64,000 bases of DNA, from the NCBI GenBank assembly GCA_015062525.1, contig SUUM01000001.1:132931-196930 (forward strand), given 5' to 3'. Made by a program: the position numbers and the translations under genes. Shown here one piece after another: positions 3,109-63,321 of this stretch. The DNA comes from Alphaproteobacteria bacterium. GTDB taxonomy: Bacteria > Pseudomonadota > Alphaproteobacteria > Rs-D84. Below the pieces are notes generated by a model. That model did not search any database and was not told the DNA's origin. It saw nothing but the letters and a program-made list of their open reading frames with translations. Within the stretch, counting starts at the first letter, position 1. Each line of letters opens with the position of its first letter.

Positions 3109-3184
3109 TGGTGGCTAGGGACGGAATCGAACCGCCGACACAGGGATTTTCAGTCCCTTGCTCTACCAACTGAGCTACCTAGCC
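3109..3184 (-). tRNA. tRNA-Phe (anticodon GAA), CCA encoded
   Basis: The reverse complement folds as a 76-nt cloverleaf: acceptor GGCTAGG/CCTAGCC, D arm GCTC-AGTTGGTA-GAGC, anticodon loop CTGAAAA and T loop TTCGATT. Confidence 0.93.
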
Positions 3185-10011: not shown

Positions 10012-10039
10012 GAAAAAAAATCGACCACATTTGTGGTCG
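10012..10039 (-). terminator. Terminator (copy 1 of the duplicated CGACCAC..GTGGTCG hairpin)
   Basis: CGACCAC-ATTT-GTGGTCG is followed by T8 on the minus strand. Confidence 0.65.
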
Positions 10040-10047
10040 TTTATTTC

Positions 10048-10231: not shown

Positions 10232-10307
10232 TGGTGGACGCGCAGGGACTCGAACCCTGGACCCACTGATTAAGAGTCAGTTGCTCTACCAACTGAGCTA
10301 CGCATCC
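10232..10307 (-). tRNA. tRNA-Lys (anticodon CUU), CCA encoded
   Basis: The reverse complement is GGATGCGTAGCTCAGTTGGTAGAGCAACTGACTCTTAATCAGTGGGTCCAGGGTTCGAGTCCCTGCGCGTCCACCA. It folds as a canonical 76-nt cloverleaf. Confidence 0.93.
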
Positions 10308-21797: not shown

Positions 21798-21832
21798 ACA
21801 AAAAAATCCCACCAAACGGTGGGATTTTTATT
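21798..21832. terminator. Bidirectional terminator
   Basis: AAATCCCACC-AAAC-GGTGGGATTT is flanked by A-runs and T-runs. It lies between the convergent dksA and hemolysin III genes. Confidence 0.7.
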
Positions 21833-22569
21833 TATAAATCCAAGATACATCCAAATAACACAGCAAAAAAGAAACAAACCGTCCCACCAATCACAAACAT
21901 GTGCCAAACACCATGTGAAAATTTCATCCGTCGCCACAGATAGAATATCACACCAATTGTATAAGCCAATCCCCCCGCCAAAATAAACCACAATCCGCGT
22001 TCTGGAATACTGCGAATCATTGCCGGTAAAATGAACAATAATGTCCACCCCATCGCAACATATAAACCAACCATCCACTTTGGTTGTTGCCTTGGGTTTT
22101 TAATCTTCATATATGCCCCAAACAACACAATCGCCCACAAAATTCCAAACACCGTCCAACCAATCAGCCCACGCAGATTCACCAACAAAAACGGTGTATA
22201 AGTTCCCGCAATCAACGCATATATGGCGACACTATCCCACACCTCGAAAAAGCATTCATGTTTTTTCCCAATCGTCGCATGACACATTGTTGAGCCAAAA
22301 TACAGCGTTATCATCGTGATGCCAAAAACAGCACACGAAACAATTGCCCACGGATCACCCTTTAACCCCGCGAACACAACCAACAGCGTCAACGCAGCAA
22401 TTGCCAAACCAATCCCAATTCCATGCGTTAAAATATTTACAATTTCTTCGGCGTGTGTTGACGGTTTTTCCCAACGGAACAACCCCGTTGCCCGCAAAAC
22501 CTTTAATAACTTTGAAGCATGTTCATCTTTTTTGACCGCACGAATGCGCGCTTTTTTTTCCTTGGTCAT
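21832..22569 (-). CDS. Hemolysin III / PAQR family membrane protein
   Basis: It has seven TM helices and conserved His motifs (HxxGxG near the N-terminus, SHGVWH near the C-terminus). Confidence 0.8.
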   Translation of the reverse strand: MTKEKKARIRAVKKDEHASKLLKVLRATGLFRWEKPSTHAEEIVNILTHGIGIGLAIAALTLLVVFAGLKGDPWAIVSCAVFGITMITLYFGSTMCHATIGKKHECFFEVWDSVAIYALIAGTYTPFLLVNLRGLIGWTVFGILWAIVLFGAYMKIKNPRQQPKWMVGLYVAMGWTLLFILPAMIRSIPERGLWFILAGGLAYTIGVIFYLWRRMKFSHGVWHMFVIGGTVCFFFAVLFGCILDL

Positions 22570-30297: not shown

Positions 30298-32295
30298 TTA
30301 ATCTTTATCAATTCTGCGAACAGTCAAAATCCCCAGTATCGACACAATCAAAACAACAATCATCCAACCATTTAATCCAATCGCGCGATATGGTGTTTCA
30401 TGCGCCCCCCAAACAAATCCATCCAACACACCCGTTGCCCCAATCGGCAACATTGACTCAACAGCACCATCCGCGCCAACAAACGCACTAATTCCCGAAT
30501 AATTCGCACGCACAATCGGCAAGCCTGATTCAATTGCATATCGACGCACCATGTCCAGATGTTGATACGTACCCGGTGTATTTCCGAACCAATTATCATT
30601 GGTTAAATTTACAATTGCCGAAACCCCCGTCGCATCATCTGGCAACAACGAATCAGAAAAAATCACTTCATAACAAATTGCGGGTGCAAAGACAAAATGT
30701 CCAATCGACAAAATTTCTGGCCCAGCACCTGGCACTAAATCCACCGGCGCGGGCAATACCCCCAACGGTCTGTATTCTCCAAATGGCACCAAATGTGATT
30801 TACTGTAAATTTTTTGGATTACACCATCTGCACCAACAACAACCATGGAATTAGACACACCTTCTGCACTAATTGTATTCGCCCCAATAATAACCGAACG
30901 CCCCAACATCCGGACAAATTCAAAATCATCATTCGGCATTACGGCAAATGGGTATGTAGTTTCCGGAAACACAATAATATCCGGATTGCCGGGCTGGGTT
31001 GCAAGCATCATCAGATTTTGCAAATTATATTCCGCACGTGCCAAGGCCTCTTCTCGACTATGCGTTGCCTTGTCCGATTGCGATTGACCGGGTTGAACTA
31101 TACGAATCATATACCCAGACGCATTTGCCCCCGCATCTGCACGTTGCATATTTTTATAACCAAAACACGCACCACCCACACCCATCGCACAGAACAGCAA
31201 CATCACAACCCAACACGATACAGACTTTTTATTGCGCAAAACCTCGACCAAAGTGGCACACAACCCAACCAAAACAAAAGTCAGTCCCAACGCCCCCCAC
31301 AACGACATAGAATTTGCCAACATCGGCCACGGCATAGTGATATTTGCAATCGGATTCCACGGGAAACCTGTGAACATCCATTCGCGCGCCCACAGAACCA
31401 AAGTCCATACACACGCGAACAATATCGCACGCCCTGCGCCACGACGACATGCCACCGCAACGAACGGCCATGAAAATATAAGTGCACCCGCAATCGCCAA
31501 TCCAATCAGACCCGGAATCGTCCAAATTGCAAACTGTTGAGTTAATTCCGGCACCACATAGATGGAATGAAAAACCCACCAAAAATTCGCCACCGCATAC
31601 ATCGCACCAAATGGCGACACACGAATAAACGTACGCCAAAACCCACCCATATTTTCATTACGAACGGTCAACCAATACGCCCCCATAATACCAATTATCG
31701 TCCACCACCAATGATAGAACGGCGCAAAACCAAAACTCGCAACCCCGCCAAACAGTGCGTACAGCGCATATTGCCAAAATCCATTTTCACGAATTTTGAA
31801 ACTTTTCATCCACGACACAAAACGTCCCCCCGGACAGCAACTGGCGTCTTTACACACAACAACATTTTCATCAGCATACGGATTTTTTATTCCCATTTTT
31901 TTCAGCACCTTGATTTCCTTCATCTCCATCAGCATCGCTTCTTGGTCATTCAAATGGTCATACCCCAGCAAATGAAACATCCCATGCACAACCATATGTG
32001 CCACATGGTCATGAAATGATATTTTTCCATCTTTTGCTTCGCGCATTACTGTATCATATGAAATATAGATATCACCCAACAACACATCATCACCCAATTC
32101 AAACGACAAAACATTTGTTGGTTTATCTATATTGCGATAAATACGATTGATTTCATGAATTTCCGCATCATCGGTCAGAATTATTGACACCTCGGCATTT
32201 TTATATTTTGCCCCCACCACCATATTCGCGATTTTTTCAAAATCGATTTTATGTTTGTCCCAACGTTTATCATGAACATCAACATATACTTTCAT
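30298..32295 (-). CDS. lnt: In-frame fusion of YbeY endoribonuclease and apolipoprotein N-acyltransferase (Lnt)
   Basis: Residues 1 to about 140 carry the YbeY metal motif HGMFHLLGYDH. From about residue 165 onward there is a multi-TM Lnt with a C-terminal nitrilase-type domain. The ORF is a single 665 codons with no stop. Confidence 0.8.
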   Translation of the reverse strand: MKVYVDVHDKRWDKHKIDFEKIANMVVGAKYKNAEVSIILTDDAEIHEINRIYRNIDKPTNVLSFELGDDVLLGDIYISYDTVMREAKDGKISFHDHVAHMVVHGMFHLLGYDHLNDQEAMLMEMKEIKVLKKMGIKNPYADENVVVCKDASCCPGGRFVSWMKSFKIRENGFWQYALYALFGGVASFGFAPFYHWWWTIIGIMGAYWLTVRNENMGGFWRTFIRVSPFGAMYAVANFWWVFHSIYVVPELTQQFAIWTIPGLIGLAIAGALIFSWPFVAVACRRGAGRAILFACVWTLVLWAREWMFTGFPWNPIANITMPWPMLANSMSLWGALGLTFVLVGLCATLVEVLRNKKSVSCWVVMLLFCAMGVGGACFGYKNMQRADAGANASGYMIRIVQPGQSQSDKATHSREEALARAEYNLQNLMMLATQPGNPDIIVFPETTYPFAVMPNDDFEFVRMLGRSVIIGANTISAEGVSNSMVVVGADGVIQKIYSKSHLVPFGEYRPLGVLPAPVDLVPGAGPEILSIGHFVFAPAICYEVIFSDSLLPDDATGVSAIVNLTNDNWFGNTPGTYQHLDMVRRYAIESGLPIVRANYSGISAFVGADGAVESMLPIGATGVLDGFVWGAHETPYRAIGLNGWMIVVLIVSILGILTVRRIDKD

Positions 32296-32321: not shown

Positions 32322-34208
32322 CTATGCCATATTTCCTTTGAATTCTTGCCCATACAGCAACAAATCAGACTTAGCATTCTTTTGATGAATCTGCTTTATA
32401 CCGGAATTGAATGCGACCTTTTTATTACCAGCCCGCTTTAACTTTTCGGACACACGTGTAATATCTTTCTGCACACGTCGATTTCCGTTTGCCAGCGCCA
32501 ACTTATAATTTGCCAATGCTTTTTGTAAATTCCCCAGTTGTTCGTACGCAAATCCAGCGTTATATTGCGCAGCGCCATATTGTGATTTATCACCAATACG
32601 CTGGACAACCTCGCGCGCTTGGGCAATTGCATCGTTATACCGCCCCAGTTTATTGTAGGTTGCCGCCAAATCATTTCTCAACAATGCATTATCAGGATAT
32701 TGTTCAATCATTTTCTTGTATTTATCTGCGGCCAACTGATAGTCACCCGCCCGATATGCGCCAACCGCGTCGGCATACAGTTCATCATACCCCAGTACAT
32801 ATGTCTTAATCTTGACCTGTTCTTCCTTTACTTCTTGTTTTTTCTTATCAGCCCGCTTTACCATATCCCAAAAACTTGGCTGTACCGCAACCTCGCACTT
32901 GCCTGCGCGACACGCCTCCGCCACATCTTGTGGCAACCAATCCCCCGCAGGTTTCCACCGACTTCCCGTCAGTTTATTTCCCCTTCTATCCACTGGATTT
33001 TCCAACCATTTGTTAAATTTTTCCAACGTCTTATTATTTACAAATCTTTTCCTATTTTTTTCTACAAACCAATTTTCACGTTCATCACCGATTATTTTAA
33101 AGAACTCTGGCATTCCACCAACTGGAATTTTCAAAAATACTTCTGGTTTAATTCCACCCCTAAGCACCTGTGCTTCTAACCACCTGCGCCATTTCAAACC
33201 ATTTCCTCCCTTCAAAAAACGCCCCAACGAATCTGCAACCACTTCTTTATTTGCGCCTGTCAACCACACCTGTCCAACAGGCGTCATATGTTCCACAGGA
33301 TACTTTTCAAACACCGCGCGCACTTGTTCCGCCGTTATTGCATTGCCGTATTCTTTGTACAGTTTATTCAATTCTGCGAAACGATCCTCATAGTTCTGAT
33401 TTCTCTTTTCATTCACAATTGGCGATTCAATCAAATTAGTTCCCAGATTATATGTTGCGGATGCCAAAGCCACCAACTCGCTGGCACTGTTAACATCCAC
33501 ACCGTCAAATACGACATCATAGCAATACAAGTGGAAAAAAGTCTCTTTTTCTGTAATGTGCCAACAGGCTAATTCATACGCCTGCTGGGTAGTAATTGGC
33601 GGTGTATTTTTATTAACACGTGTTCCATCCTTTAATACGGTTGAACCAAACCCGATTGTCCAAACACCCTGTCCATCCAGATAAGGGATATGCATTCCCT
33701 GGGCATTGACCCTAACCCCCTCTTTGGCTATCAAATCCGCCACCAGATAAGGCAACACAGGCCTCATTTTTTCCAAAAACTCCGCATATGTTCCCGCCTG
33801 GGCACGCTTTATACTGTTTTCTATCTTAACCTCTTCTACCAAATCAGAAATTTCAATCCCCGCCTTAGTTCCACCTACAATTAACATAATCAGCATATAA
33901 TAAATCACATGCGACGATAAATTCGGATGTCGCTTCATAAATTCCTGTAATTTTTTATTTTCACCCTTCTTGTTTTTTTTGACACGCATATCACGCAACT
34001 TTCTTTCACCCGCACGCAATGCATGATTATCCAAAGTAATATATTTAGTTGCCCAGAATAAAAACTGCGCCAATCCCGTCATTGTCATCCCAGCACCCTT
34101 GGCCACTTTACCATACCATTTATCAGGCTGTGTACGCATGATTTCCTGGGTTGCGCGACCAAAAGCCCTGTGTGGAAAGTTAACAATTTTTTGAAATTTC
34201 TCTGCCAT
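32322..34208 (-). CDS. Membrane-anchored GH24 (phage-lysozyme-like) domain protein with C-terminal TPR repeats
   Basis: It has two hydrophobic segments. EGVRVNAQGMHIPYLDGQGVWTIGFGST resembles the T4-lysozyme-type motif EG....Y.D..G..TIGYG. The C-terminus has TPR-like repeats. Confidence 0.6.
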   Translation of the reverse strand: MAEKFQKIVNFPHRAFGRATQEIMRTQPDKWYGKVAKGAGMTMTGLAQFLFWATKYITLDNHALRAGERKLRDMRVKKNKKGENKKLQEFMKRHPNLSSHVIYYMLIMLIVGGTKAGIEISDLVEEVKIENSIKRAQAGTYAEFLEKMRPVLPYLVADLIAKEGVRVNAQGMHIPYLDGQGVWTIGFGSTVLKDGTRVNKNTPPITTQQAYELACWHITEKETFFHLYCYDVVFDGVDVNSASELVALASATYNLGTNLIESPIVNEKRNQNYEDRFAELNKLYKEYGNAITAEQVRAVFEKYPVEHMTPVGQVWLTGANKEVVADSLGRFLKGGNGLKWRRWLEAQVLRGGIKPEVFLKIPVGGMPEFFKIIGDERENWFVEKNRKRFVNNKTLEKFNKWLENPVDRRGNKLTGSRWKPAGDWLPQDVAEACRAGKCEVAVQPSFWDMVKRADKKKQEVKEEQVKIKTYVLGYDELYADAVGAYRAGDYQLAADKYKKMIEQYPDNALLRNDLAATYNKLGRYNDAIAQAREVVQRIGDKSQYGAAQYNAGFAYEQLGNLQKALANYKLALANGNRRVQKDITRVSEKLKRAGNKKVAFNSGIKQIHQKNAKSDLLLYGQEFKGNMA

Positions 34209-34636: not shown

Positions 34637-35908
34637 ATGACACGACCACTTGCCGATTTAATGCGCCCCAACACAATTGACCAGGTTATTGGTCAAACCA
34701 CACTGTTGGGCGAAAACGGCCTGGTCCGTCGCATGGTTGACAATAAAAAACTATCTAATTTAATTCTGTGGGGCCCGCCCGGGTGTGGCAAAACCACAAT
34801 CGCGCGCGCCCTGGCAAATTCTGTTGACATGGACTTTGTGCCGATGTCTGCGGTATTTTCCGGAACTGCTGATATTAAAAAGGCAATGGATGCCGCCCGT
34901 ATGAACCGCGACATTGGCCGTGGCACATTGCTATTCATCGATGAAATTCATCGCTTTAACAAAACGCAACAGGACACCCTGCTGCCATATTTAGAAGATG
35001 GCACGGTTGTATTTATTGGCGCAACAACTGAAAACCCCAGTTTTAATTTAAACAACGCATTATTATCGCGTTGTCACATCGGGGTTTTACAACCCTTATC
35101 GACCGAAGACTTATTAACCTTGATGACCCGTGCCGAAGAATTCGTCGACAAAAAATTACCATTAGAAAATGATGCACGCACCCACCTGGCCCAGATGGCA
35201 GACGGCGACGCACGATTTTTACTGAATACTGTAGAATACTTGTTTAATGCAAATTTCAAGAAACCATTATCATCAGACGCCTTGGACAACGCTGTACAGA
35301 AGCGCGCCCCCCTGTCGGACAAGCATGGCGACGAACACTATAATTTAATATCTGCGGTTCACAAATCCCTGCGGGCAAGTGATACGGACGCGGCACTTTA
35401 TTGGACGGCGCGCATGATGACATCGGGCCAAGACCCCATGTATATTTTCCGCAGGCTTACCCGCTTTGCGGTCGAAGATGTGGGACTTGCCGACCCAAAC
35501 GCCCTGCAGATTGCAATTGCCGCCTGGTCTGCGTATGAAAGATTGGGCAGTCCCGAAGGCGACCTGGCACTAACACAACTTGTTATCTATCTGGGGACCG
35601 CCCCAAAAAGCATTGGCAATTACCGCGCGCAAAAGGCCGCATATGCGTGCGCCCGCGAAACGGGCAGTTTAATGCCACCCAAGAATATTCTGAACGCGCC
35701 AACAAAAATGATGAAAAATCTGGGTTATAATGCGGGCTATATTTATGACCCCGACACCGCGACCGGCTTTTCCGGTCAGAACTGTTTCCCAGAATCAATG
35801 GGGCGTAAAAAGTTTTATGAACCGGTCGAACGTGGATTTGAACGTGAAATAAAAAAACGTCTGGAATATTGGGACGCATTACGCGAAAAAATGAATAAAA
35901 CCACTTAA
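34637..35908 (+). CDS. rarA: Replication-associated recombination protein A (AAA+ ATPase)
   Basis: It has the Walker A motif GPPGCGKTT, the Walker B motif DEIHRFNK and a MgsA C-terminal domain. Confidence 0.92.
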   Translation: MTRPLADLMRPNTIDQVIGQTTLLGENGLVRRMVDNKKLSNLILWGPPGCGKTTIARALANSVDMDFVPMSAVFSGTADIKKAMDAARMNRDIGRGTLLFIDEIHRFNKTQQDTLLPYLEDGTVVFIGATTENPSFNLNNALLSRCHIGVLQPLSTEDLLTLMTRAEEFVDKKLPLENDARTHLAQMADGDARFLLNTVEYLFNANFKKPLSSDALDNAVQKRAPLSDKHGDEHYNLISAVHKSLRASDTDAALYWTARMMTSGQDPMYIFRRLTRFAVEDVGLADPNALQIAIAAWSAYERLGSPEGDLALTQLVIYLGTAPKSIGNYRAQKAAYACARETGSLMPPKNILNAPTKMMKNLGYNAGYIYDPDTATGFSGQNCFPESMGRKKFYEPVERGFEREIKKRLEYWDALREKMNKTT

Positions 35909-36870
35909 CGCGACTTAACCATTATATCACCAATCTCGCTTAATACCGCACGCACATTTGTCGCAGTATCTGTTTGACAGGCGGCGCACCCAACATTCGC
36001 ACGCTTAATCATCCCCGTCAACGTACGTCCAGGTCCCAATTCATATGCACGTGTAATATTATATGTCGGGAATGTTTCCATTATATCCAACCAACGCACA
36101 CCATGCGTCATTTGATTACACAAGGCATCACGAACATCACGTGGATTAGACATAAATTGTGCGGTCTGATTTGAATACCAATTTGTTTTTGGCGCATCAA
36201 ATTGAATCTTTTCCATACGCGCCCGCAGTAATTTTTCAGCACCACTCATCAACGCACAATGCGCCGGCACAGACACATTTAATCGTTTTGCGATACGCGC
36301 ACCACGACGGCGTGCCGATTCCACAATCGCATCCAAAGCCGCGTTATGCCCGCTTATTACGAATTGATCCGCCGCATTATGATTTGAAATTTGCGCATAC
36401 CCCAATCCTGCGGCTTCAACCATACATTGTGCAATTTCATCCTTGGACAACCCGACAATTGCCGCCATACCACCGGCACCTGCAACATCTTGCATATAAG
36501 CGGCACGCGCCGCCAACATTTGAACAGCATCATCCATTTTCATACTGCCCACGCAATGCAACGCAGAATATTGCCCCATTGAATGTCCCGCCATAGCATA
36601 TGCAAGTGTGTGCAATGGCACGCCATACTCGCTTTCAATAATGTTCGCAATTGCAACTGAATGCGCAAACGTTGCAAGTGATGTATTTTCTGGTTTATTC
36701 AGTTCATTCTGCGAACCATTAAAACAAATTTTGGTCATATCACGCTTTGCAATATCAGACACCTGTTCAAAAACATAGCGTGCCGTTGCAAAATCACGAA
36801 ACAAATCTGCGCCCATACCAACGTATTGCGCACCTTGACCCGGAAAAACAAAAATTATTTTATCTGACAT
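35905..36870 (-). CDS. fabD: Malonyl CoA-ACP transacylase
   Basis: It has the motifs FPGQGAQ and GHSMGQYSA. Confidence 0.92.
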   Translation of the reverse strand: MSDKIIFVFPGQGAQYVGMGADLFRDFATARYVFEQVSDIAKRDMTKICFNGSQNELNKPENTSLATFAHSVAIANIIESEYGVPLHTLAYAMAGHSMGQYSALHCVGSMKMDDAVQMLAARAAYMQDVAGAGGMAAIVGLSKDEIAQCMVEAAGLGYAQISNHNAADQFVISGHNAALDAIVESARRRGARIAKRLNVSVPAHCALMSGAEKLLRARMEKIQFDAPKTNWYSNQTAQFMSNPRDVRDALCNQMTHGVRWLDIMETFPTYNITRAYELGPGRTLTGMIKRANVGCAACQTDTATNVRAVLSEIGDIMVKSR

Positions 36871-36947
36871 ACTATCATAAAATTAACACAAAATAAATTA
36901 TTGTCAAATAAAATCAACCCTACCCGGCCCCTTGCTTGGTAAAAAAT

Positions 36948-37043
36948 AAAAGATAATGGTATAGATATGGACAGTGCCGCCCCCGTAGTGTACAGACGCT
37001 ACATAAGGGGACGGCACCGTTCATAGATATGCCATTAGATTTT
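36948..37043 (-). repeat. Long-hairpin repeat family, copy A
   Basis: It has the left flank AAAGATAATGGTATAGATA, a stem pairing GTGCCGCCCC with GGGGACGGCAC, the core GTAGTGTACAGACGCTACATAA and the right flank TAGATATGCCATTAGATTT. Confidence 0.8.
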
Positions 37044-37065
37044 ATTGAAAATAAATTAGAATGTG

Positions 37066-37136
37066 CCAGATGCACGCAGTGGGTGTGGCGTAGTGTACAA
37101 GTCACTACATGAGCCACACCCACCGCGTGCAGATGG
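37066..37136 (-). repeat. Long-hairpin repeat family, copy B
   Basis: It has an 18-bp stem (GCACGCAGTGGGTGTGGC / GCCACACCCACCGCGTGC) with one mismatch, the core GTAGTGTACAAGTCACTACATGA and AGAT/AGAT at the base. Confidence 0.8.
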
Positions 37137-37160
37137 ACCGTTATAATTTATTTATATTTT

Positions 37161-37901
37161 TTAGAACAAGATATTTATCTTGAATCCTACCTGTGCATCA
37201 TCTGATTCAAATTCATAGTCAATATGCCCTACATACTGTGTACGCCCATATTGACGAACCAATTTCATATGCAACCATTCCTGATCATAGTCTTTGCCAG
37301 TTTGCATATCCTTATGCGTCGCCTTACGAATTGTCAACCCCGCACCAATTCGCCAGTCTGGTGCAATACGAAAATATGATTCAGGGGTAAAATCTAATAA
37401 CGCCATACCACGCAAATCATCAAACACCCATGTTGATTTAATTGTCGCAGCCAATGTCATACCCGCCCATTGACGCCCCATACGCAACCCAACATAGTAC
37501 GTAGAATCAGCATAATCCGGCGTACGCACGCGATGACTGCCCCCAAATTTGAATCCAAACAACACATCCGATATTTTACGTGATTTTTTACCATTGGCCA
37601 TCCCCACACGATAAACACCACCCAAATCAATCGCGGCAAAACCATCTTCGGGTCCATTAAAGTCATGCTGATATCGAACATTTGCACCAATCGCCAAACG
37701 ATTATTCATTCCATATGACAACGATTGACCCATGCCCAAAATATGATCCCAATAAGAAATCGAAGACTGTGTCAAAATCTCTTCTATGCTCTGCAAGAAC
37801 AATGGATCCGACGTATCAGTTGAAACTTCATTTGCACGCGCAAATGATGGCGTTGCCATCACCCCCAACAAACCCAAAACCGATAAAAATTTACGCATCA
37901 A
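37161..37901 (-). CDS. Outer-membrane beta-barrel protein, hypothetical
   Basis: It has a signal peptide, amphipathic beta-strands and a C-terminal ...FKINILF. Confidence 0.55.
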   Translation of the reverse strand: MMRKFLSVLGLLGVMATPSFARANEVSTDTSDPLFLQSIEEILTQSSISYWDHILGMGQSLSYGMNNRLAIGANVRYQHDFNGPEDGFAAIDLGGVYRVGMANGKKSRKISDVLFGFKFGGSHRVRTPDYADSTYYVGLRMGRQWAGMTLAATIKSTWVFDDLRGMALLDFTPESYFRIAPDWRIGAGLTIRKATHKDMQTGKDYDQEWLHMKLVRQYGRTQYVGHIDYEFESDDAQVGFKINILF

Positions 37902-39313: not shown

Positions 39314-41605
39314 TTACAGTATATGTCTTTTATTATTCGCATCAGGCGCAGACACAATCCCATCCTGTTCCATGCGTTCCATAAAGCCCGCAGCCTTGTT
39401 ATAGCCAATCTGCAAACGACGCTGAATATATGAAATGGTTGGCTTTTTATCACGAATAACACATTCTTTGGCGCGTTCATACAGGTCGGCTTCTTTATCC
39501 GCCCCGCCACCGCCCGGTATTGCGCCGGGAATGCCGGCCACATCTGCGCCCGCACCTTCGCCGTCCTCGTCCGTTACACCATCAACATATTCCGGCGCAC
39601 CCTGTGAACGCAGAAAATCACCAATTCGCGTTAATTCATTATCATCAATAAACGCACCGTGTATGCGCACCGGCACGCGTCCTGCCTCGCTAAACAGCAT
39701 ATCACCACACGCCAACAATTGTTCCGCACCACCTTCGCCCAGACATGTCACACTGTCGATACGACTGCGCGCCTGGAATGAAACACGCGTTGGGAAATTA
39801 GCCTTGATAACACCGGTAATTGTTGTTGCGTCTGGTCGTTGTGTCGCCATCACCAGGTGAATACCCGCCGCACGCGCCTTTTGCGCAATACGCTGAACAC
39901 AGGCCTCTACATCCTTGCGCGCCAGGCTCATAAGGTCCGCCACCTCGTCAATAACGATAACGATATATGGAATATCAGACAAATCTATTTCCTGGGTTTC
40001 GAACAATAATTCACCGGTTTCTGGGTCTGTACCCACGGCAACTTGCTTGGTCAATTTTTCGCCCGCCGCGCGTTTTTCAGCCGCTATTTCATTATAACTT
40101 TCGATATTGCGTGCGTTCAGAACCTGCAATTGTTTATAACGTTCTTCCATTTCGCGCACCGCCCATTTCAGTGCGTTCACAGCCGCCGCCGGATCCAATT
40201 TTACAATCGGTGTAATCAGGTGTGGAATATCATCCCAGAATCCAAAGTCCACACCCTTGGGGTCGATAATCATCAACTTGCACTTATCGGGTGTAAAGTG
40301 ATAAACAATCGATGTAATGATTGATTGCACGAACACAGACTTACCCGAACCCGTGCGCCCTGCGATTAACATATGCGGCATTTTTGCCAAATCAAAATAC
40401 ATTGGATTTCCGCCAATATTCACCCCCAACGCCAGCGGGATTTTGTATTTAGTATCAACAAAAGTATCCGATTCCATCAAACTGCGATAACGCACGGTCT
40501 GACGGGTCACATTTACCATTTCGACGCCAATATAACTAGTACTTGGGATATGGGCGATACGAATATTTTCGGTCGCCATGGCGCGTGTCATATCCTTGAC
40601 CGTTTTAGTAATATCCGCAATACGCATACCCGTATCAGGTTCAAATTCATACAGTGTTACAATGGGTCCCGGCTTAATTCCCATAACCCGACCAAAGACC
40701 CCATATTCAGCAAAATGCGTTTCCATATTTCGTGCATTTTGCTTCAATTCCGGCGTTACCGCACATTTACTGAACAAAGATTTTTCCAGCAATTTTGGGT
40801 CCGGCAATTGATATTGAGATGTCGCGCGCACACGTTTTGGTGCCACCGCAACGGGCGCGGGCGTTGCAACCACCGTGGCCTTTTTCGGCGCGCGACGTGA
40901 TAAAAACCCACGACGTTGCTTTTTTGGTTGTTCTGTTTCTTCTTCCTGGCTGTCGTCTTCTGCGACATCTTCTGCCTCATCATATTCCATCGCCGCAACT
41001 GGTGTCGTCAGATGGAATGCCGCCGCCACGGCACGTATCGTACGCCATGCAATCTGCAGCGCGCCACGCACATGCGCCCATTTAATGTGTAATAAACTGC
41101 CCCCCATCCAGAAAAAGCCAACCAAACACAAAATCCCCACGACCAGGGCACCACCACCCATAATCGCCCCCAGGTCATTTGCGACAATTGCCCCAAAAAT
41201 TCCGCCAAACGCACGCGCCGGCATAATCAGTCCAAAACCAGCCGCCCCCAAACACACCGCAATAAACCCACGCAAAAAATTATATTCAGGCGACACATCC
41301 CCACGCAACGCAATCGCGCGCATAAAACCCCAACGCGCCACACACAGAAATACAAACAACCCCGGAACCGCCCCGATTGCGTACCGAACAAAACCAACAA
41401 CATGCCCCGCAACGGACTGGTCGCCGAACGTACCCGACGCCCCAAACCCCGACAAATAAGGGTCATAAAACAGCATTGCGAAAACCGCCCACACACCGCC
41501 CACGCACACCAGCGCACCAAACACGCGCGCCACAAAAGCCTTTAATACGCCGGAAATACTGTCCGGCAAAAATTTATTTGAATTCTTTCCTGCCATAACA
41601 GTCAT
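39314..41605 (-). CDS. ftsK: DNA translocase FtsK
   Basis: It has N-terminal TM helices, a linker, a motor domain with the Walker A motif GRTGSGKS and a gamma winged-helix tail. Confidence 0.95.
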   Translation of the reverse strand: MTVMAGKNSNKFLPDSISGVLKAFVARVFGALVCVGGVWAVFAMLFYDPYLSGFGASGTFGDQSVAGHVVGFVRYAIGAVPGLFVFLCVARWGFMRAIALRGDVSPEYNFLRGFIAVCLGAAGFGLIMPARAFGGIFGAIVANDLGAIMGGGALVVGILCLVGFFWMGGSLLHIKWAHVRGALQIAWRTIRAVAAAFHLTTPVAAMEYDEAEDVAEDDSQEEETEQPKKQRRGFLSRRAPKKATVVATPAPVAVAPKRVRATSQYQLPDPKLLEKSLFSKCAVTPELKQNARNMETHFAEYGVFGRVMGIKPGPIVTLYEFEPDTGMRIADITKTVKDMTRAMATENIRIAHIPSTSYIGVEMVNVTRQTVRYRSLMESDTFVDTKYKIPLALGVNIGGNPMYFDLAKMPHMLIAGRTGSGKSVFVQSIITSIVYHFTPDKCKLMIIDPKGVDFGFWDDIPHLITPIVKLDPAAAVNALKWAVREMEERYKQLQVLNARNIESYNEIAAEKRAAGEKLTKQVAVGTDPETGELLFETQEIDLSDIPYIVIVIDEVADLMSLARKDVEACVQRIAQKARAAGIHLVMATQRPDATTITGVIKANFPTRVSFQARSRIDSVTCLGEGGAEQLLACGDMLFSEAGRVPVRIHGAFIDDNELTRIGDFLRSQGAPEYVDGVTDEDGEGAGADVAGIPGAIPGGGGADKEADLYERAKECVIRDKKPTISYIQRRLQIGYNKAAGFMERMEQDGIVSAPDANNKRHIL

Positions 41606-41623: not shown

Positions 41624-41664
41624 CAAAAAAAACAGGCGATAATCTTATCGCCTGACTTTTTTTC
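41624..41664. terminator. Bidirectional terminator-like hairpin
   Basis: CAGGCGATAA-TC-TTATCGCCTG is flanked by A8 and T7. Confidence 0.6.
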
Positions 41665-51262: not shown

Positions 51263-51271
51263 ATTATATCA

Positions 51272-51297
51272 TAAAAATCCCCCAGATGGGGGATTTT
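51272..51297 (-). terminator. Terminator after the PAP2 gene
   Basis: The hairpin AAATCCCCC-AGAT-GGGGGATTT has a T-run on the minus strand. Confidence 0.6.
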
Positions 51298-51982
51298 ATT
51301 TTTTAAGTAGCTTCCATTTCACAATATCAGCAATCACCATACCAATAAATGCCCCCAAAATAACATCACTGGGCCAATGCGCACCAACTGCAATTCGCGA
51401 CACACCAATCACAATCGCCAATGTCCACGTCAACACCTTGTATTTCGGTGCCAACATCCCAACCATAACCAAACCTGCAAAACTGACCGCTGTATGTCCA
51501 GACGGCATAGAATTAAATGCCCAATCAAGTGATGGCGGAAAAAATCCTGTCATATCCAGCGCCTCGAAAAATATTGGTCGCGCACGTCCAATAAATATCT
51601 TTAAAACCCGGACCACAATCCCCGCACCCAAAACGCTACAAAATATTAAAAAAGCATTATTATTCTTTATATTTACTAAAAAATTATGCAAAAATGCCGA
51701 AAACTTCAACCGATTTGCACATTTTATAAAACTACAATCTGTTTTTACACATTTTTTAATACAAAAAACCAGCACAGCAACAAATGAACCAAAAATCCAA
51801 ACCTTGCCATCAAAAATCACATCCAAATATTTCCAGAATCCGCAATCAAATTCCCGCAAGAATAAAAACAGCGGTTTATCAAACCACATGATTCCGCACA
51901 TAACCAACACCGCAGTTATCAATGCCGCCCAACCCATCTTGCGCCATTTTATTTCATTATTTGCTGTTAAAAACATATCCAC
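51296..51982 (-). CDS. PAP2-family lipid phosphatase
   Basis: It has the motifs KxxxxxxRP (KIFIGRARP), PSGH and SRxxxxxHxxxD (SRIAVGAHWPSD). Confidence 0.85.
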   Translation of the reverse strand: MDMFLTANNEIKWRKMGWAALITAVLVMCGIMWFDKPLFLFLREFDCGFWKYLDVIFDGKVWIFGSFVAVLVFCIKKCVKTDCSFIKCANRLKFSAFLHNFLVNIKNNNAFLIFCSVLGAGIVVRVLKIFIGRARPIFFEALDMTGFFPPSLDWAFNSMPSGHTAVSFAGLVMVGMLAPKYKVLTWTLAIVIGVSRIAVGAHWPSDVILGAFIGMVIADIVKWKLLKK

Positions 51983-60012: not shown

Positions 60013-60864
60013 ATGAATTATATTGAAATATTTTTAGAAGCCCTGTCTGCCGAACGCGGTCGCAGCATAAAAACACTAAGCGGTTATGAATCAGACCTGC
60101 GTCTGGCAAATGACGCCATTGCGGGCGGATTAATTGGCGCGGACGCAAACGCCATACAAAAGTATCTGGCATCTTTGCCGGACAAGCCATCATCAATCGC
60201 GCGCAAGGCATCCGCCCTGCGTGGTTTCTATAAATTTTTAATGATGGAAAAAATCATATCGCACAACCCAACCGCCAACCTTGAATTACCCAAACGAACG
60301 CGCACATTACCAAAATTCTTATCTATTGATGAAATTGAATTATTAATTTCCAGTGCGGGCGACATAAAAAACTCAATACGCCTGCGCGCGATGATTGAAT
60401 TGCTGTACGCATCGGGTCTGCGTGTTTCGGAATTATGTGAATTACCAATGACGGGTGTCCTGGGCGACAAATTACTTATTCATGGCAAGGGCGCCAAAGA
60501 ACGCCTGGTCCCAATGCACGATGCTGCAATACATGCCCTGAATAAATGGCTGGATGCACGTGGCGACAACGAATCCAAATACGTGTTTCCATCGAACGGA
60601 AAAACGGGCCACATCACCCGCGACGGATTTTTCAAGATATTGAAAAAATGCGCTATCTTGGCGGGCATTGACCCAAACCGCGTCAGTCCGCACGTCCTGC
60701 GCCATTCATTTGCATCCCACCTGTTGGCGGGTGGCGCAAACCTGCGCGCAATTCAAACAATGCTGGGACACGAAGACATTTCCACAACCCAGATTTACAC
60801 CCACGTCATGCCACACGAATTAATGGACACAGTCGAGGCACATCATCCCCTGGCCAAGAAATAA
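60013..60864 (+). CDS. xerD: Tyrosine recombinase XerD (XerC/D family)
   Basis: The R-H-R-Y catalytic set is present (ASGLRVSEL, HVLRHSFA, GHEDISTTQIYTHV). It is 283 aa. Confidence 0.8.
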   Translation: MNYIEIFLEALSAERGRSIKTLSGYESDLRLANDAIAGGLIGADANAIQKYLASLPDKPSSIARKASALRGFYKFLMMEKIISHNPTANLELPKRTRTLPKFLSIDEIELLISSAGDIKNSIRLRAMIELLYASGLRVSELCELPMTGVLGDKLLIHGKGAKERLVPMHDAAIHALNKWLDARGDNESKYVFPSNGKTGHITRDGFFKILKKCAILAGIDPNRVSPHVLRHSFASHLLAGGANLRAIQTMLGHEDISTTQIYTHVMPHELMDTVEAHHPLAKK

Positions 60865-61484: not shown

Positions 61485-62000
61485 ATGCTATTAAAATCAA
61501 AAATTTGTATAACGTCATTAGTTATATATGAAATTATTGCCGTATCAATTTTGCACTTTCAACGCATTTGCGACGCAATATTTACAAGTGCCTTCTGCGA
61601 CAGTTGGTATCGTTATTTTCTGTTTTGCGTGGCGATTCCATTGGTCGCATTATTGATATGGATGTGGATAAGTGAAATCATCCGCGTACACCGCCGGCAC
61701 AAATTCATCCGCCGTGCCAAAAATGCCGCCAGTGGAATACTGTCCAGCATACGTGGACACGTATCTGACAACATATCACACGCAGACATGGAAAAAATAA
61801 TAACCGCGGCCGTATTGATTGGCATCAAGCGCTATGCCGACCGTCATCCAAACCTGCGCAAAAATATAAACAACATCATTGGCATGGCAAATGGCGAAAT
61901 TGACATTGATTTAATGTCCACAGACGATGAAGAACCGGTCAAAAAGCCACGCAAAACGAATAAAAAAAGTGGCACAAAACCCACCAAAAAACGCAAATAA
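61485..62000 (+). CDS. Hypothetical membrane protein with a Lys-rich tail
   Basis: It has two or three hydrophobic helices and the basic C-terminus KKPRKTNKKSGTKPTKKRK. Confidence 0.4.
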   Translation: MLLKSKICITSLVIYEIIAVSILHFQRICDAIFTSAFCDSWYRYFLFCVAIPLVALLIWMWISEIIRVHRRHKFIRRAKNAASGILSSIRGHVSDNISHADMEKIITAAVLIGIKRYADRHPNLRKNINNIIGMANGEIDIDLMSTDDEEPVKKPRKTNKKSGTKPTKKRK

Positions 62001-62034
62001 AGATTCCTGTTCTCACACCCCCAGCAACGGGAAA

Positions 62035-62135
62035 AAATTAAAGATAATTGTATAGATAAACGGGTTGGAAATGGCGTAGTGTACACAAACGTACATGAGC
62101 CATTGCCAACCCGCTTTAGATATGCCACTAGATTT
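62035..62135 (-). repeat. Long-hairpin repeat family, copy C
   Basis: It has the left flank AAAGATAATTGTATAGATA, the stem ACGGGTTGGAAATGGC / GCCATTGCCAACCCGC, the core GTAGTGTACACAAACGTACATGA and the right flank TAGATATGCCACTAGATTT. Confidence 0.8.
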
Positions 62136-62139
62136 AATT

Positions 62140-62313: not shown

Positions 62314-62332
62314 TTCAAACTCCTTTATTAAA

Positions 62333-62416
62333 ATTAAAGATAATGGTATAGCCGAACGCGAACCCGCAACCATAGTGTACAGACGCTACATGAGGGGACG
62401 GCACCGTGCGTAGATG
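62333..62416 (-). repeat. Long-hairpin repeat family, copy D (chimeric, non-pairing left arm)
   Basis: It has the left flank AAAGATAATGGTATAG. Its core and right arm, TAGTGTACAGACGCTACATGAGGGGACGGCACCGT, are almost identical to copy A. Its left arm, CCGAACGCGAACCCGCAACC, is not complementary. Confidence 0.7.
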
Positions 62417-62421
62417 AATTA

Positions 62422-63321
62422 TTATAATTTATTTAAGTACGCGATTGCGTCCATTCCGGCGCTGCACCCCGTCCCCACAGCCGTCGCAATTTGCATCTTT
62501 AATTCGCTGTGCACATCGCCTGCGACATACATACCGGCCGGCAACGCGTCCGGTGCAATACGCCCCAATGCATCACGTTTAACATCCTCGGTCAGATAAT
62601 CTGTATTCGCCTCGTGCCCAATGGCAACAAACAAACCATCGGCAACGATTTGGTCGCCATCGGTTGTTGTGATAATCAACTCGCCATCTTGTGAATCCGG
62701 TTTTGCCGCAATCTTTGCCAAATCTGTATTAAACAGACATTCAATATTATCGCGTGCCTGAACCCGTTCACGCAAAACAGCCTCGGCGCGTGTGAATGCA
62801 GATTTACGATAAACAATTTTAACATTTTTCGCCAAATCAGCCAAATACAACGCATCGTTCAGCGCACTGTTTCCGCCACCCATAACGACGACGTTTTTCC
62901 CACTATAAAAGAACCCATCACACGTCGCACAATACGAAACACCGCGCCCCATAAATTCACGCGCACCTTCGATTTCCAATTTGCGCGGACTGGCACCCGT
63001 GGCGATAATCACAGTTTTACCAACAAATTCTTCATCGTTATCACACAGAACACGATACCCATTTTCCGCATCCCCCGTGATATTTTTTGCACTAATAAAT
63101 TTTACTGTGGCACCAAATGTTTCACATTGTTTTTGCATAAACTGTGCCAATTCAAAACCGGAACCGGCCCACCCCGGATAGTTTTCCAGTGTTGCAATAC
63201 CCGCCATCTGACCACCCAACCGGTCGCCACCGATAACAATCGTCTTTTTATTTGCACGCGCTGTGTACAACGCCGCGGTCAAACCGGCCGGTCCTGAACC
63301 CAATATAATTACATCATACAT
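62422..63321 (-). CDS. trxB: Thioredoxin-disulfide reductase
   Basis: It has the FAD motif GSGPAG and the redox centre CATCDG. Confidence 0.93.
   Translation of the reverse strand: MYDVIILGSGPAGLTAALYTARANKKTIVIGGDRLGGQMAGIATLENYPGWAGSGFELAQFMQKQCETFGATVKFISAKNITGDAENGYRVLCDNDEEFVGKTVIIATGASPRKLEIEGAREFMGRGVSYCATCDGFFYSGKNVVVMGGGNSALNDALYLADLAKNVKIVYRKSAFTRAEAVLRERVQARDNIECLFNTDLAKIAAKPDSQDGELIITTTDGDQIVADGLFVAIGHEANTDYLTEDVKRDALGRIAPDALPAGMYVAGDVHSELKMQIATAVGTGCSAGMDAIAYLNKL

Follow-up and report, generated by a model that had tools for sequence, protein, structure and literature searches.

A widespread, unnamed family of hairpin repeats in gut Alphaproteobacteria shows near-absolute polarity relative to replication and exceptional covariation

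REP, BIME, and REPIN sequences are abundant extragenic imperfect palindromes that are encountered at the 3' ends of genes in variable tandem copy number. Positions that differ between REP types stay complementary, while a GTAG motif and recognition mismatches are conserved (PMC3333891, PMC2817692), and both the GTAG and the stem mismatch of the REP hairpin are required by RAYT (PMC3333891). IS200/IS605 elements and their miniature derivatives are likewise hairpin-dependent and strand-specific, lack classical terminal inverted repeats and target duplication, display a replication-biased orientation (PMC3333891; PMC5027513), and act at the lagging-strand template (PMC3333891). The attC sites of integrons are defined by a fold with mismatches and extrahelical features, are located after the stop codons of open reading frames (ORFs) in one orientation, and have a strand choice that is linked to replication. 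Correia elements of Neisseria, ERIC, and Rickettsia palindromic elements are intergenic palindromes of about 100-150 nt that can be terminators or RNA processing sites, and those of Rickettsia also occur in reduced alphaproteobacterial genomes; such elements are conserved over their full length, occur in both orientations, and end in defined repeats, to which Correia elements add a TA duplication. The present study concerns a 64,000-nt stretch of DNA (hereafter the window; positions 132,931 to 196,930 of contig SUUM01000001.1, assembly GCA_015062525.1) from an alphaproteobacterium of lineage Rs-D84, in which a sequence-only reading had noticed four long imperfect hairpins, designated A to D. 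They belong to an unnamed, widespread family of hairpin repeats, whose covariation is exceptional and whose polarity relative to replication is near-absolute.

The unit of the family is a palindrome of approximately 111 nt, composed of an A-tract (AAAAAT.AA), a flank, an AGAT box, an arm, an apical module, a second arm, a second AGAT box, a second flank, and a T-tract. The left arm measures 18 nt and the right arm 17-18 nt, and the apical module reads CGTAGTGTAC-N5-7-YTACATRAG, or CG-TAGTGTAC-N5-7-YTACATRAG in the context of the unit. Left flanks are of type 1 (AGATAATGGTAT) or type 2 (TTAGAATGATTT), and right flanks read ATGCCATTAGATTT or GAATTATTATAATTT. The AGAT boxes are direct repeats within the inverted repeat and face each other as G.A/A.G; two to four of them are present per element, as type-1 flanks add a second pair. 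The A-tract and T-tract border the hairpin on either side, so that the ends of the element are inverted A-tract/T-tract repeats; the AGAT boxes are its only direct repeats.

A covariance model derived from 90 diverse members matched the window at exactly four places (36948-37043, 37053-37149, 62039-62136, and 62335-62430), in agreement with the four copies that had been proposed. The exact core GTAGTGTAC-N4-7-TACAT is found on the plus strand at 36985, 37090, and 62076, with 0 occurrences expected in shuffles, while the core of copy D (ATAGTGTAC) falls outside this pattern. Copies A, B, and C form long hairpins of about 100 nt and copy D is unfolded, and thus the claim of four covarying hairpins holds for the first three (z = -11.5, -7.2, and -7.2), but not for D, which is a chimera (z = -0.8). 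The AGAT/AGAT stem base, the conserved apical module, and the complementary arms are as the sequence-only reading had described them, and the wide alignment presented below agrees. That reading had reserved long flanks for A and C and had confined B to 37066-37136, which needs correction, since B has type-2 flanks and spans approximately 37053-37149. Three independent metagenome assemblies contain the locus in base-for-base identical form. The parts of the four copies are given below.

36917-36939, plus strand: C-rich CCCCTTGC-type module before copy A; a similar one precedes copy C at 62014-62031
36940-37052, plus strand: copy A, whole palindrome with A-tract and T-tract (fold, model)
36948-37043, plus strand: copy A, model match (95.3 bits; RNA fold -54.3 kcal/mol, z = -11.5)
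36951-36954, plus strand: copy A, outer left AGAT within the type-1 left flank, opposing 37037-37040; unpaired 2x2 G.A/A.G loop in the fold
36963-36966, plus strand: copy A, inner left AGAT, opposing 37025-37028
36967-36984, plus strand: copy A, left arm of 18 nt, ATGGACAGTGCCGCCCCC (sequence, fold, alignment)
36985-37007, plus strand: copy A, apical module G-TAGTGTAC-AGACGC-TACATAAG (core scan, alignment)
37008-37024, plus strand: copy A, right arm of 17 nt, GGGACGGCACCGTTCAT (sequence, fold)
37025-37028, plus strand: copy A, inner right AGAT (sequence, alignment)
37037-37040, plus strand: copy A, outer right AGAT within the type-1 right flank ATGCCATTAGATTT (sequence)
37053-37149, plus strand: copy B, whole, with type-2 flanks AAATTAGAATGTGCC / GGACCGTTATAATTT (82.8 bits; fold -49.9 kcal/mol, z = -7.2)
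37068-37071, plus strand: copy B, left AGAT (sequence)
37072-37089, plus strand: copy B, left arm GCACGCAGTGGGTGTGGC (sequence, fold)
37090-37113, plus strand: copy B, apical module G-TAGTGTAC-AAGTCAC-TACATGAG (core scan)
37114-37130, plus strand: copy B, right arm CCACACCCACCGCGTGC (sequence, fold)
37131-37134, plus strand: copy B, right AGAT; the stop of the minus-strand ORF 37161-37901 lies 26 nt beyond
62039-62136, plus strand: copy C, whole; its flanks are of type 1 and the genes around it converge (75.1 bits; fold -39.5 kcal/mol, z = -7.2)
62054-62057, plus strand: copy C, inner left AGAT, with its right partner at 62118-62121
62058-62075, plus strand: copy C, left arm AAACGGGTTGGAAATGGC, of an arm class found at many other loci
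62076-62099, plus strand: copy C, apical module G-TAGTGTAC-ACAAACG-TACATGAG (core scan), the TGTAC/GTACA mini-stem variant
62100-62121, plus strand: copy C, right arm CCATTGCCAACCCGCTTT and AGAT (sequence)
62335-62430, plus strand: copy D, recombinant (50 bits; fold z = -0.8), the left half of which has a type-1 flank, a left arm of another class, and no left AGAT
62372-62394, plus strand: copy D, core ATAGTGTAC..TACATGAG
62395-62411, plus strand: copy D, right arm of the A class, followed by AGAT at 62412-62415 and a type-2 right flank that holds the stop codon of ORF 62422-63321

Pattern scans matched at least 120 stretches of metagenome DNA and, in species-representative genomes, at least 117. 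The loci fetched contained 312 core matches, 228 of them bordered by AGAT left and right, from which 213 unique full hairpins were obtained; more than 300 further copies were thereby added to those of the window. Among the matches listed, the named hosts were nearly all metagenome-assembled genomes (MAGs) of Candidatus Enterousia or of unclassified gut Alphaproteobacteria, obtained from ruminants, horses, birds, and humans. Enterousia represents the order Rs-D84 and has genomes smaller than 1 Mb (PMC12306168), and approximately 90% of the DNA of the hosts is coding. At orthologous intergenic sites of loci L029, L148, L175, L112, and L192, hairpins of the same architecture carry variant cores, such as GTACACTCC or GTACACTGCG in place of GTACACTACG, which the exact pattern had missed; the scans thus understate the breadth of the family. 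The sequence-only reading had not recognized the core as any named family, and Rfam agrees: the whole window yielded only two tRNAs at gathering thresholds, the locus yielded only the generic noise of long-hairpin miRNA families at E-values up to 10, with scores well short of the cut-offs, and the out-group loci described below yielded rRNA and tRNA only. Two pattern scans of viral contigs returned 0 matches and 1 match, respectively, the latter inside a coding region and attributable to chance; judged from these scans, the element is not phage-borne. A literature search on the core motif retrieved only the termini of orthobunyavirus genome segments (AGTAGTGTAC, identical to the core), which was dismissed as coincidence.

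Covariation was assessed in an alignment of 90 sequences, consisting of 87 out of 101 representatives that were less than 90% mutually similar, supplemented with window copies A, B, and C. Double-sided compensatory changes were detected in 22 of the 30 pairs predicted by RNAalifold, paired cells amounted to 91.4% as compared to 69.0% in shuffles, double-change cells numbered 667 versus 209 in shuffles, and the covariation score was 0.593, as compared to 0.18 in shuffled alignments and 0.09-0.13 with slid partners. A single arm pair can use all four Watson-Crick types (e.g., CG 26, GC 26, UA 23, and AU 8), and the outer flanks covary as well. CGTAGTGTAC, TACAT.AG, and both AGAT boxes are invariant or almost so, a CCG/CGG in the middle of the arms is semi-conserved, and the tip helix contains an invariant G.U. 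Within the AGAT boxes the A and T pair in 89 of the 90 sequences, while GA/AG remains mismatched. The notion that the central stems differ completely in sequence and yet remain complementary is correct as regards complementarity, but the arms form a continuum of stepwise variants, 128 out of 200 falling in one single-linkage cluster. Similarly, the earlier contrast between selection on structure and recent duplication is an oversimplification, as copies do duplicate and swap arms and a G.U excess is absent from the arms.

When folded as RNA, the plus strand is the more stable one in 195 of 200 copies, by 9.8 kcal/mol on average, because of the G.A/A.G mismatches and G.U wobbles in the flanks and the G.U in the tip helix. 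On this strand, flank mismatches are G.A/A.G in 251 cases versus 15 of the C.U type, and flank wobbles are G.U in 263 cases versus 40 A.C. The arms contain 91 mismatches of the G.U type versus 130 of the A.C type, and thus lack the G.U excess of an RNA. When DNA parameters are applied, the folds of the two strands are nearly equal in energy, with a difference of 0.5-2.6 kcal/mol, and asymmetric hairpin stability was therefore rejected as the cause of the polarity described below. The non-canonical features that look designed are thus found on the strand that is antisense to the owner gene and is located on the leading-strand template.

Polarity was determined from the GC skew of genes, averaged over both strands per locus, which cancels coding-strand effects. 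This strand-neutral skew was negative on the plus strand of the element in 122 of 123 contexts, i.e., in 46/46 tandem contexts with genes on the opposite strand, 68/69 convergent contexts, 6/6 contexts with own-strand neighbors, and 2/2 divergent contexts. The G-rich strand holds only 64% of the genes, and the lagging-strand genes that make up the remaining 36% own no copies in tandem contexts (0/46) and a single one in convergent contexts (1/69). Nearby tRNA genes were located on the opposite strand in 13 out of 13 cases, and both orientations were encountered in only 1 locus. The negative skew and the opposite tRNA genes identify the GTAGTGTAC strand as the lagging strand, which is C-rich and serves as template for the leading strand, and the orientation of the element follows replication, not transcription. 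Within the window (1-64000) the GC skew of the plus strand is uniformly negative (about -0.03 to -0.38), whatever the direction of the genes, and both tRNA genes (3109-3184 and 10232-10307) are on the minus strand, which places the entire window on one replichore with the minus strand leading. The four window copies share a single orientation and each follows a minus-strand stop codon, as had been noted.

In the frame of the plus strand, 213 of 227 elements are followed on their 3' side by a gene of the opposite strand, and the stop codon of this owner gene lies 5-30 nt from the 3' AGAT, within the flank of the element, in 172 of 189. Elements occupy 48% of convergent intergenic regions, 22% of leading-strand tandem regions, 5% of lagging-strand tandem regions, and 2% (3/150) of divergent regions. 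Filled and empty orthologous sites both exist, and orthologous gene ends that lack the element mostly carry ordinary terminators. Such bidirectional terminators, composed of an A-tract, a 5-8-bp GC hairpin, and a T-tract that overlap a stop codon, are present in the window at 51269-51302, 41627-41660, 10014-10047, and 21798-21833. The element shares with them the arrangement of A-tract, hairpin, and T-tract over a stop codon as well as the orthologous positions, and thus occupies the terminator niche. Ordinary terminators measure about 35 nt, with an 8-bp GC stem that touches the T-tract and no conserved sequence, whereas the element is three times longer, has a conserved tip and AGAT boxes, and has an AU-rich stem base. 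T-tracts trail the hairpin on both strands, but the stem base is AU-rich and contains mismatches, and a consensus terminator scan was silent at A and B. The terminator at 51269-51302 has AGAT in its loop, and its outer tracts resemble the ends of the element.

The elements are subject to considerable turnover. Different arms were found at the same site in loci with 93-99% identical flanks (L186 versus L123, L109 versus L082, and L036 versus L140), and copy number also varies among such near-identical genomes. Locus L127 lacks exactly the segment between the cores of two adjacent copies that are present in L236, and a chimera is left. Window copy D is such a chimera as well, as it combines a left arm from another class with an A-like right half, and in locus L119, which has 99% identical flanks, the right half of the D site is occupied by a different, decayed sequence. 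Arm-swap breakpoints vary, and were located in the flank, in AGAT, and in the core, a pattern that recombination among these short conserved segments would produce. Copies also occur in tandem head-to-tail arrays, in which only the final unit has retained its right arm and right flank; the units are approximately 90-100 nt long, contain no ORF, and are joined by a lineage-specific C-rich linker of the CCCCTTGC or CGTGATTAGCG type. This linker also precedes window copies A and C, and is present at about 15% of the copies overall (35/243). A single cassette-less remnant, reading flank-TAGAT-flank, was found. The possibility that AGAT is the target-site duplication or cleavage site of a mobile arm-core-arm cassette was rejected, as there is one empty site only, breakpoints vary, and slippage or recombination suffices. 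As a separate observation, L119 differs from the window by approximately 77 extra nt that resemble an ordinary terminator, between the plus-strand gene and copy C (window 62000-62040), and by a 29-nt insertion before copy D (window 62316-62336), from which it appears that intergenic indels cluster near elements.

A model search detected full members outside Enterousia as well, which have the same core and spacing and mostly both AGAT boxes, with unrelated arms and flanks, and among which the mini-stem variant of copy C is seen as well. No protein-level similarity was detected between these out-group contigs and the Enterousia loci. The gene names of the out-group loci given below are putative, being our own reading of the translations, and the binning of these contigs is provisional.

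L128: copy after purC, in a MAG labelled Clostridia
L147: copy after a purL-like gene, in a MAG labelled Clostridia
L061: copy after guaA, on a contig of 25% GC
L008: copy after prfB
L083: three tandem copies
L072, 573-943: copy in the 16S-23S spacer, directly 3' of tRNA-Ile and followed by tRNA-Ala

The transcript of the neighboring gene would read the CTCATGTA..GTACACTACG sense in all six loci. Termination in an rRNA spacer would be harmful, and the L072 copy thus argues against an obligatory terminator role.

REP/REPIN with RAYT and attC are the closest analogues of the family, yet it belongs to neither, on account of its size, the position of its GTAG, its uniform orientation, and its lack of R and L boxes. 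Like REP, the family is high-copy, extragenic, located at gene 3' ends, and variable in copy number, but the REP unit measures 30-40 nt as compared to about 111 nt here, and the GTAG that precedes the foot of the REP hairpin is an invariant part of the apical module in the family, 18 nt inside the stem. BIMEs alternate in orientation, whereas the family has one orientation per locus and head-to-tail arrays; furthermore, its orientation is locked to replication and its arms are far more diverse than those of REP. The R''/L'' and L'/R' boxes of attC (RYYYAAC ... GTTRRRY) are absent, the stem base consisting of AGAT/AGAT in AT-rich flanks instead, and the tip, which is variable in attC, is the conserved module of the family. 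The copies are dispersed around the genome, with no gene cassettes, integron integrase, or attI. IS200/IS605 elements have separate subterminal hairpins at their left and right ends, with guide and cleavage tetranucleotides, whereas the family consists of one continuous palindrome, of which the better-structured strand is on the leading-strand template. From Correia, ERIC, and Rickettsia elements the family is set apart by arms that are free to vary, by AGAT direct repeats in its interior, and by its polarity relative to replication. Readings of the G.A motifs as kink-turn, box C/D, or hammerhead-like were rejected on geometry: the G.A loops are symmetric 2x2 loops with no bulge, and the variable regions pair together.

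No enzyme of the analogous systems was encountered. Searches by tblastn with RAYT, IS200, and IS608 TnpA queries gave no match in 1.58 Mb of host loci, which represent parts of genomes, and Pfam tables for nearly all of the window contained no RAYT or Y1-type family. The sole recombinase in these tables was XerD-like. It corresponds to a tyrosine recombinase of 283 aa, encoded at 60013-60864 on the plus strand and scoring above the cut-off for NF001399 (303 bits), and is probably a housekeeping dimer-resolution enzyme of the XerD/XerC type. As its gene lies 1.2 kb upstream of copy C, the sequence-only observation that no integrase is adjacent requires mention of this neighbor, which has an ordinary housekeeping look.

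The reading that we favor, with a probability of roughly 45%, is that of a REP/attC-like structured non-coding DNA repeat, the spread or retention of which would be coupled to replication, and which the host would tolerate at the 3' ends of genes, where it takes the place of terminators. It is based on the replication polarity, on the gain, loss, array, and chimera behavior, on the copy in the rRNA spacer, and on the absence of a wobble bias in the arms. Of the three explanations that the sequence-only reading had offered, the REP/MITE-like one fits best, considering the filled and empty sites, truncated arrays, chimeras, and arm swaps. In such a repeat, the AGAT boxes and the apical module would be the sequence-specific parts, and the arms and outer flanks would need self-complementarity only. 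Spread or retention would be coupled to replication via a single-stranded hairpin intermediate, either through strand-specific insertion, as in IS200/IS605 and RAYT/REP, or through strand-specific loss of hairpins, and a putative trans-acting protein may recognize the invariant tip and the purine-purine mismatches. Copies would survive mainly at gene 3' ends, where the A-tract, long hairpin, and T-tract could do the job of the displaced terminator, and the arms would stay complementary if only hairpin-competent copies persist, while being shuffled by ectopic recombination between conserved flank and core segments. Copies at gene ends would probably be useful as well. A more specific proposal, which we consider unlikely, is that the element is the substrate of a previously undescribed, replication-coupled 'hairpin cassette' system that acts on single-stranded DNA in gut bacteria with reduced genomes, and in which an HUH-type enzyme or a tyrosine recombinase would copy, move, or exchange the arm-core-arm segment between docking flanks. 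The enzyme, encoded by the host or by an element, would recognize the folded strand by its invariant tip and its purine-purine mismatches, and the system would install standardized gene-end structures on leading-strand genes only.

Several observations weigh against a replication-coupled DNA repeat. The variable breakpoints fit ordinary recombination and lend no specific support to enzymatic cleavage at AGAT. No split element with an insert between its halves or in its loop, as expected of an autonomous parent, was present in 1.6 Mb of loci, in which only decayed copies were found, and no outer target-site duplication was detected, the filled and empty sites being too diverged to read one; the negative RAYT and TnpA searches point in the same direction. 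The better-structured plus strand is on the leading-strand template, whereas IS200/IS605 uses the lagging-strand template, and no single hypothesis accounts for a structured strand that is both antisense and on the leading-strand template. The near-equal stability of the two strands as DNA makes a difference in hairpin stability a weak explanation of the 99% bias. A contribution to transcription termination is suggested by position only. Finally, reduced genomes usually purge selfish repeats, and the maintenance of the family in genomes of less than 1 Mb therefore hints at a host function.

This last observation is shared by a less likely alternative, in which the element acts at the RNA level as the 3' end of the mRNA (CTCATGTAGCG..GTACACTACG sense), as terminator and/or block to 3'-exonucleases, with apical and internal loops that would bind an RNA-binding protein, and spreads by duplication and recombination. 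It agrees with the location of copies, which always directly follow the stop codon of a leading-strand gene and would be read in the sense of its mRNA, with the A- and T-tracts on both sides of the hairpin, with the replacement of ordinary terminators at orthologous sites, with the avoidance of divergent regions (3/150 occupied), and with the A.C excess in the arms of the plus strand, which amounts to an excess of G.U when read on the strand of the mRNA (130 versus 91). However, it explains position and not polarity, given that lagging-strand genes own virtually no copies; in the mRNA sense the mismatches turn into U.C/C.U and the flank wobbles into A.C, and this sense folds worse in 195 of 200 copies. 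In addition, the GC-rich stem is some 20 nt away from the U-tract, so that a simple terminator scan remains silent, one copy lies between tRNA-Ile and tRNA-Ala of an rRNA operon, and truncated array units have a perfect core but cannot form the hairpin. The terminator role proposed by the sequence-only reading is thus supported by position only, and cannot apply to the rRNA-spacer copy. The small stable RNA that it had also proposed fares worse. In this very improbable scenario, each unit would be a plus-strand gene under a promoter of its own, made up of a GATAAT/TAGAAT box within the left flank and CCCCTTGC upstream. Its product would be a hairpin RNA that contains tandem G.A pairs and an internal GUA/GA loop of the loop-E-like kind and ends in a U-tail, and arrays would be multi-gene clusters. 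The stronger RNA fold of the plus strand (195/200 copies, mean 9.8 kcal/mol), its flank wobbles (263:40) and mismatches (251:15), the invariant G.U of the tip helix, the -10-like hexamers at a fixed distance from AGAT, the T-run after the hairpin, and the upstream module on each array unit are all compatible with it. Nevertheless, no sigma-70-type promoter was predicted at A and B, and the two that were called near C and D do not exceed chance expectation; CCCCTTGC is present in only 35 of 243 copies, with a spacing of 14-15 nt to the -10-like box, and this box is inside a left flank that covaries with the right flank, and is hence part of the folded molecule. Moreover, transcription would be head-on to replication in 99% of the cases, opposite to what holds for expressed RNA genes, and nothing similar is present in Rfam.

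Two further explanations invoke the DNA itself. A recombination site of folded single-stranded DNA, comparable to integron attC or the attP of CTX phage, between copies of which a Xer-type tyrosine recombinase would exchange or delete DNA, is improbable, even if it is consistent with the conservation of structure rather than sequence, the uniform orientation directly after stop codons, the deletions exactly between cores, the exchange of halves at the core, and the XerD-like gene 1.2 kb from copy C. The location of the better-structured strand on the leading-strand template fits as well, as the bottom strands of chromosomal-integron attC sites are reportedly on that template. Against it, no cassette ORFs are present between copies, array units being about 90-100 nt, no R/L-box or dif-like sequence was read in the element, the enzyme scores as an ordinary Xer (NF001399, 303 bits), which to our knowledge is present in every bacterium, swap breakpoints vary, and replication slippage alone would delete between 24-nt direct repeats at a distance of about 100 nt. 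The slimmest chance is given to a replication-polar signal for chromosome maintenance, either a hairpin for priming or restart (plasmid sso, phage ssi) or a carrier of G-rich FtsK-type motifs. The polarity (122/123) suits such a signal, as does the long imperfect palindrome with its conserved apical loop, the commonest variant of which reads TAGCGT along the lagging-strand template, matching the motif CS-6 known from origins of the ssoA type; furthermore, GGGTAGGG adjoins copy A, and each of the six matches to GGGNAGGG in the window falls on the leading strand. TAGCGT is not conserved, however, as the loop varies, six GGGNAGGG matches are no excess (21 of 100 shuffles reach at least 6) and composition favors the G-rich strand, copies are clustered and dispensable at orthologous sites, and we know of no chromosomal requirement for such signals.

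Irrespective of mechanism, the family provides a natural test of structure-only constraint, as it comprises hundreds of paralogous hairpins with a fixed tip and mismatches and free stems. A 99% orientation lock is rare for a non-coding repeat, and points to a replication-coupled mechanism or to a strong strand-specific limit on long hairpins. At many gene ends in genomes of less than 1 Mb, elements of about 111 nt have replaced 35-nt terminators. If the 'hairpin cassette' system were real, it would be widespread, since housekeeping genes in unrelated contigs are also followed by members with this core and this spacing. In MAGs of Rs-D84 the element breaks assemblies and creates spurious ORFs, and marks gene ends and the direction of replication, and annotation libraries would benefit from a covariance model of it. 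A spurious ORF of this kind is the 67-aa, GTG-start ORF at 36920-37123 on the minus strand, which runs through copies A and B; it has no family match, the variation of the arms precludes its conservation, and it is almost certainly an artefact of the palindromes.

Copies A and B are located between a minus-strand gene (37161-37901) and fabD (35905-36870, Acyl_transf_1). The former had been called an 'OMP' gene, a label that is putative only, as the gene has no match in Pfam or NCBIfam. The six KOPS-like GGGNAGGG octamers of the window are all on the G-rich minus strand, where composition alone favors G-rich words, and one of them (36918-36925) abuts copy A; a gene for FtsK with a gamma domain is present at 39314-41605. 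Further minus-strand genes in this region encode a 665-aa protein (30298-32295) that combines YbeY with apolipoprotein N-acyltransferase domains (LNT_N, CN_hydrolase), and a 628-aa protein (32322-34208) with a phage-lysozyme domain and TPR repeats.

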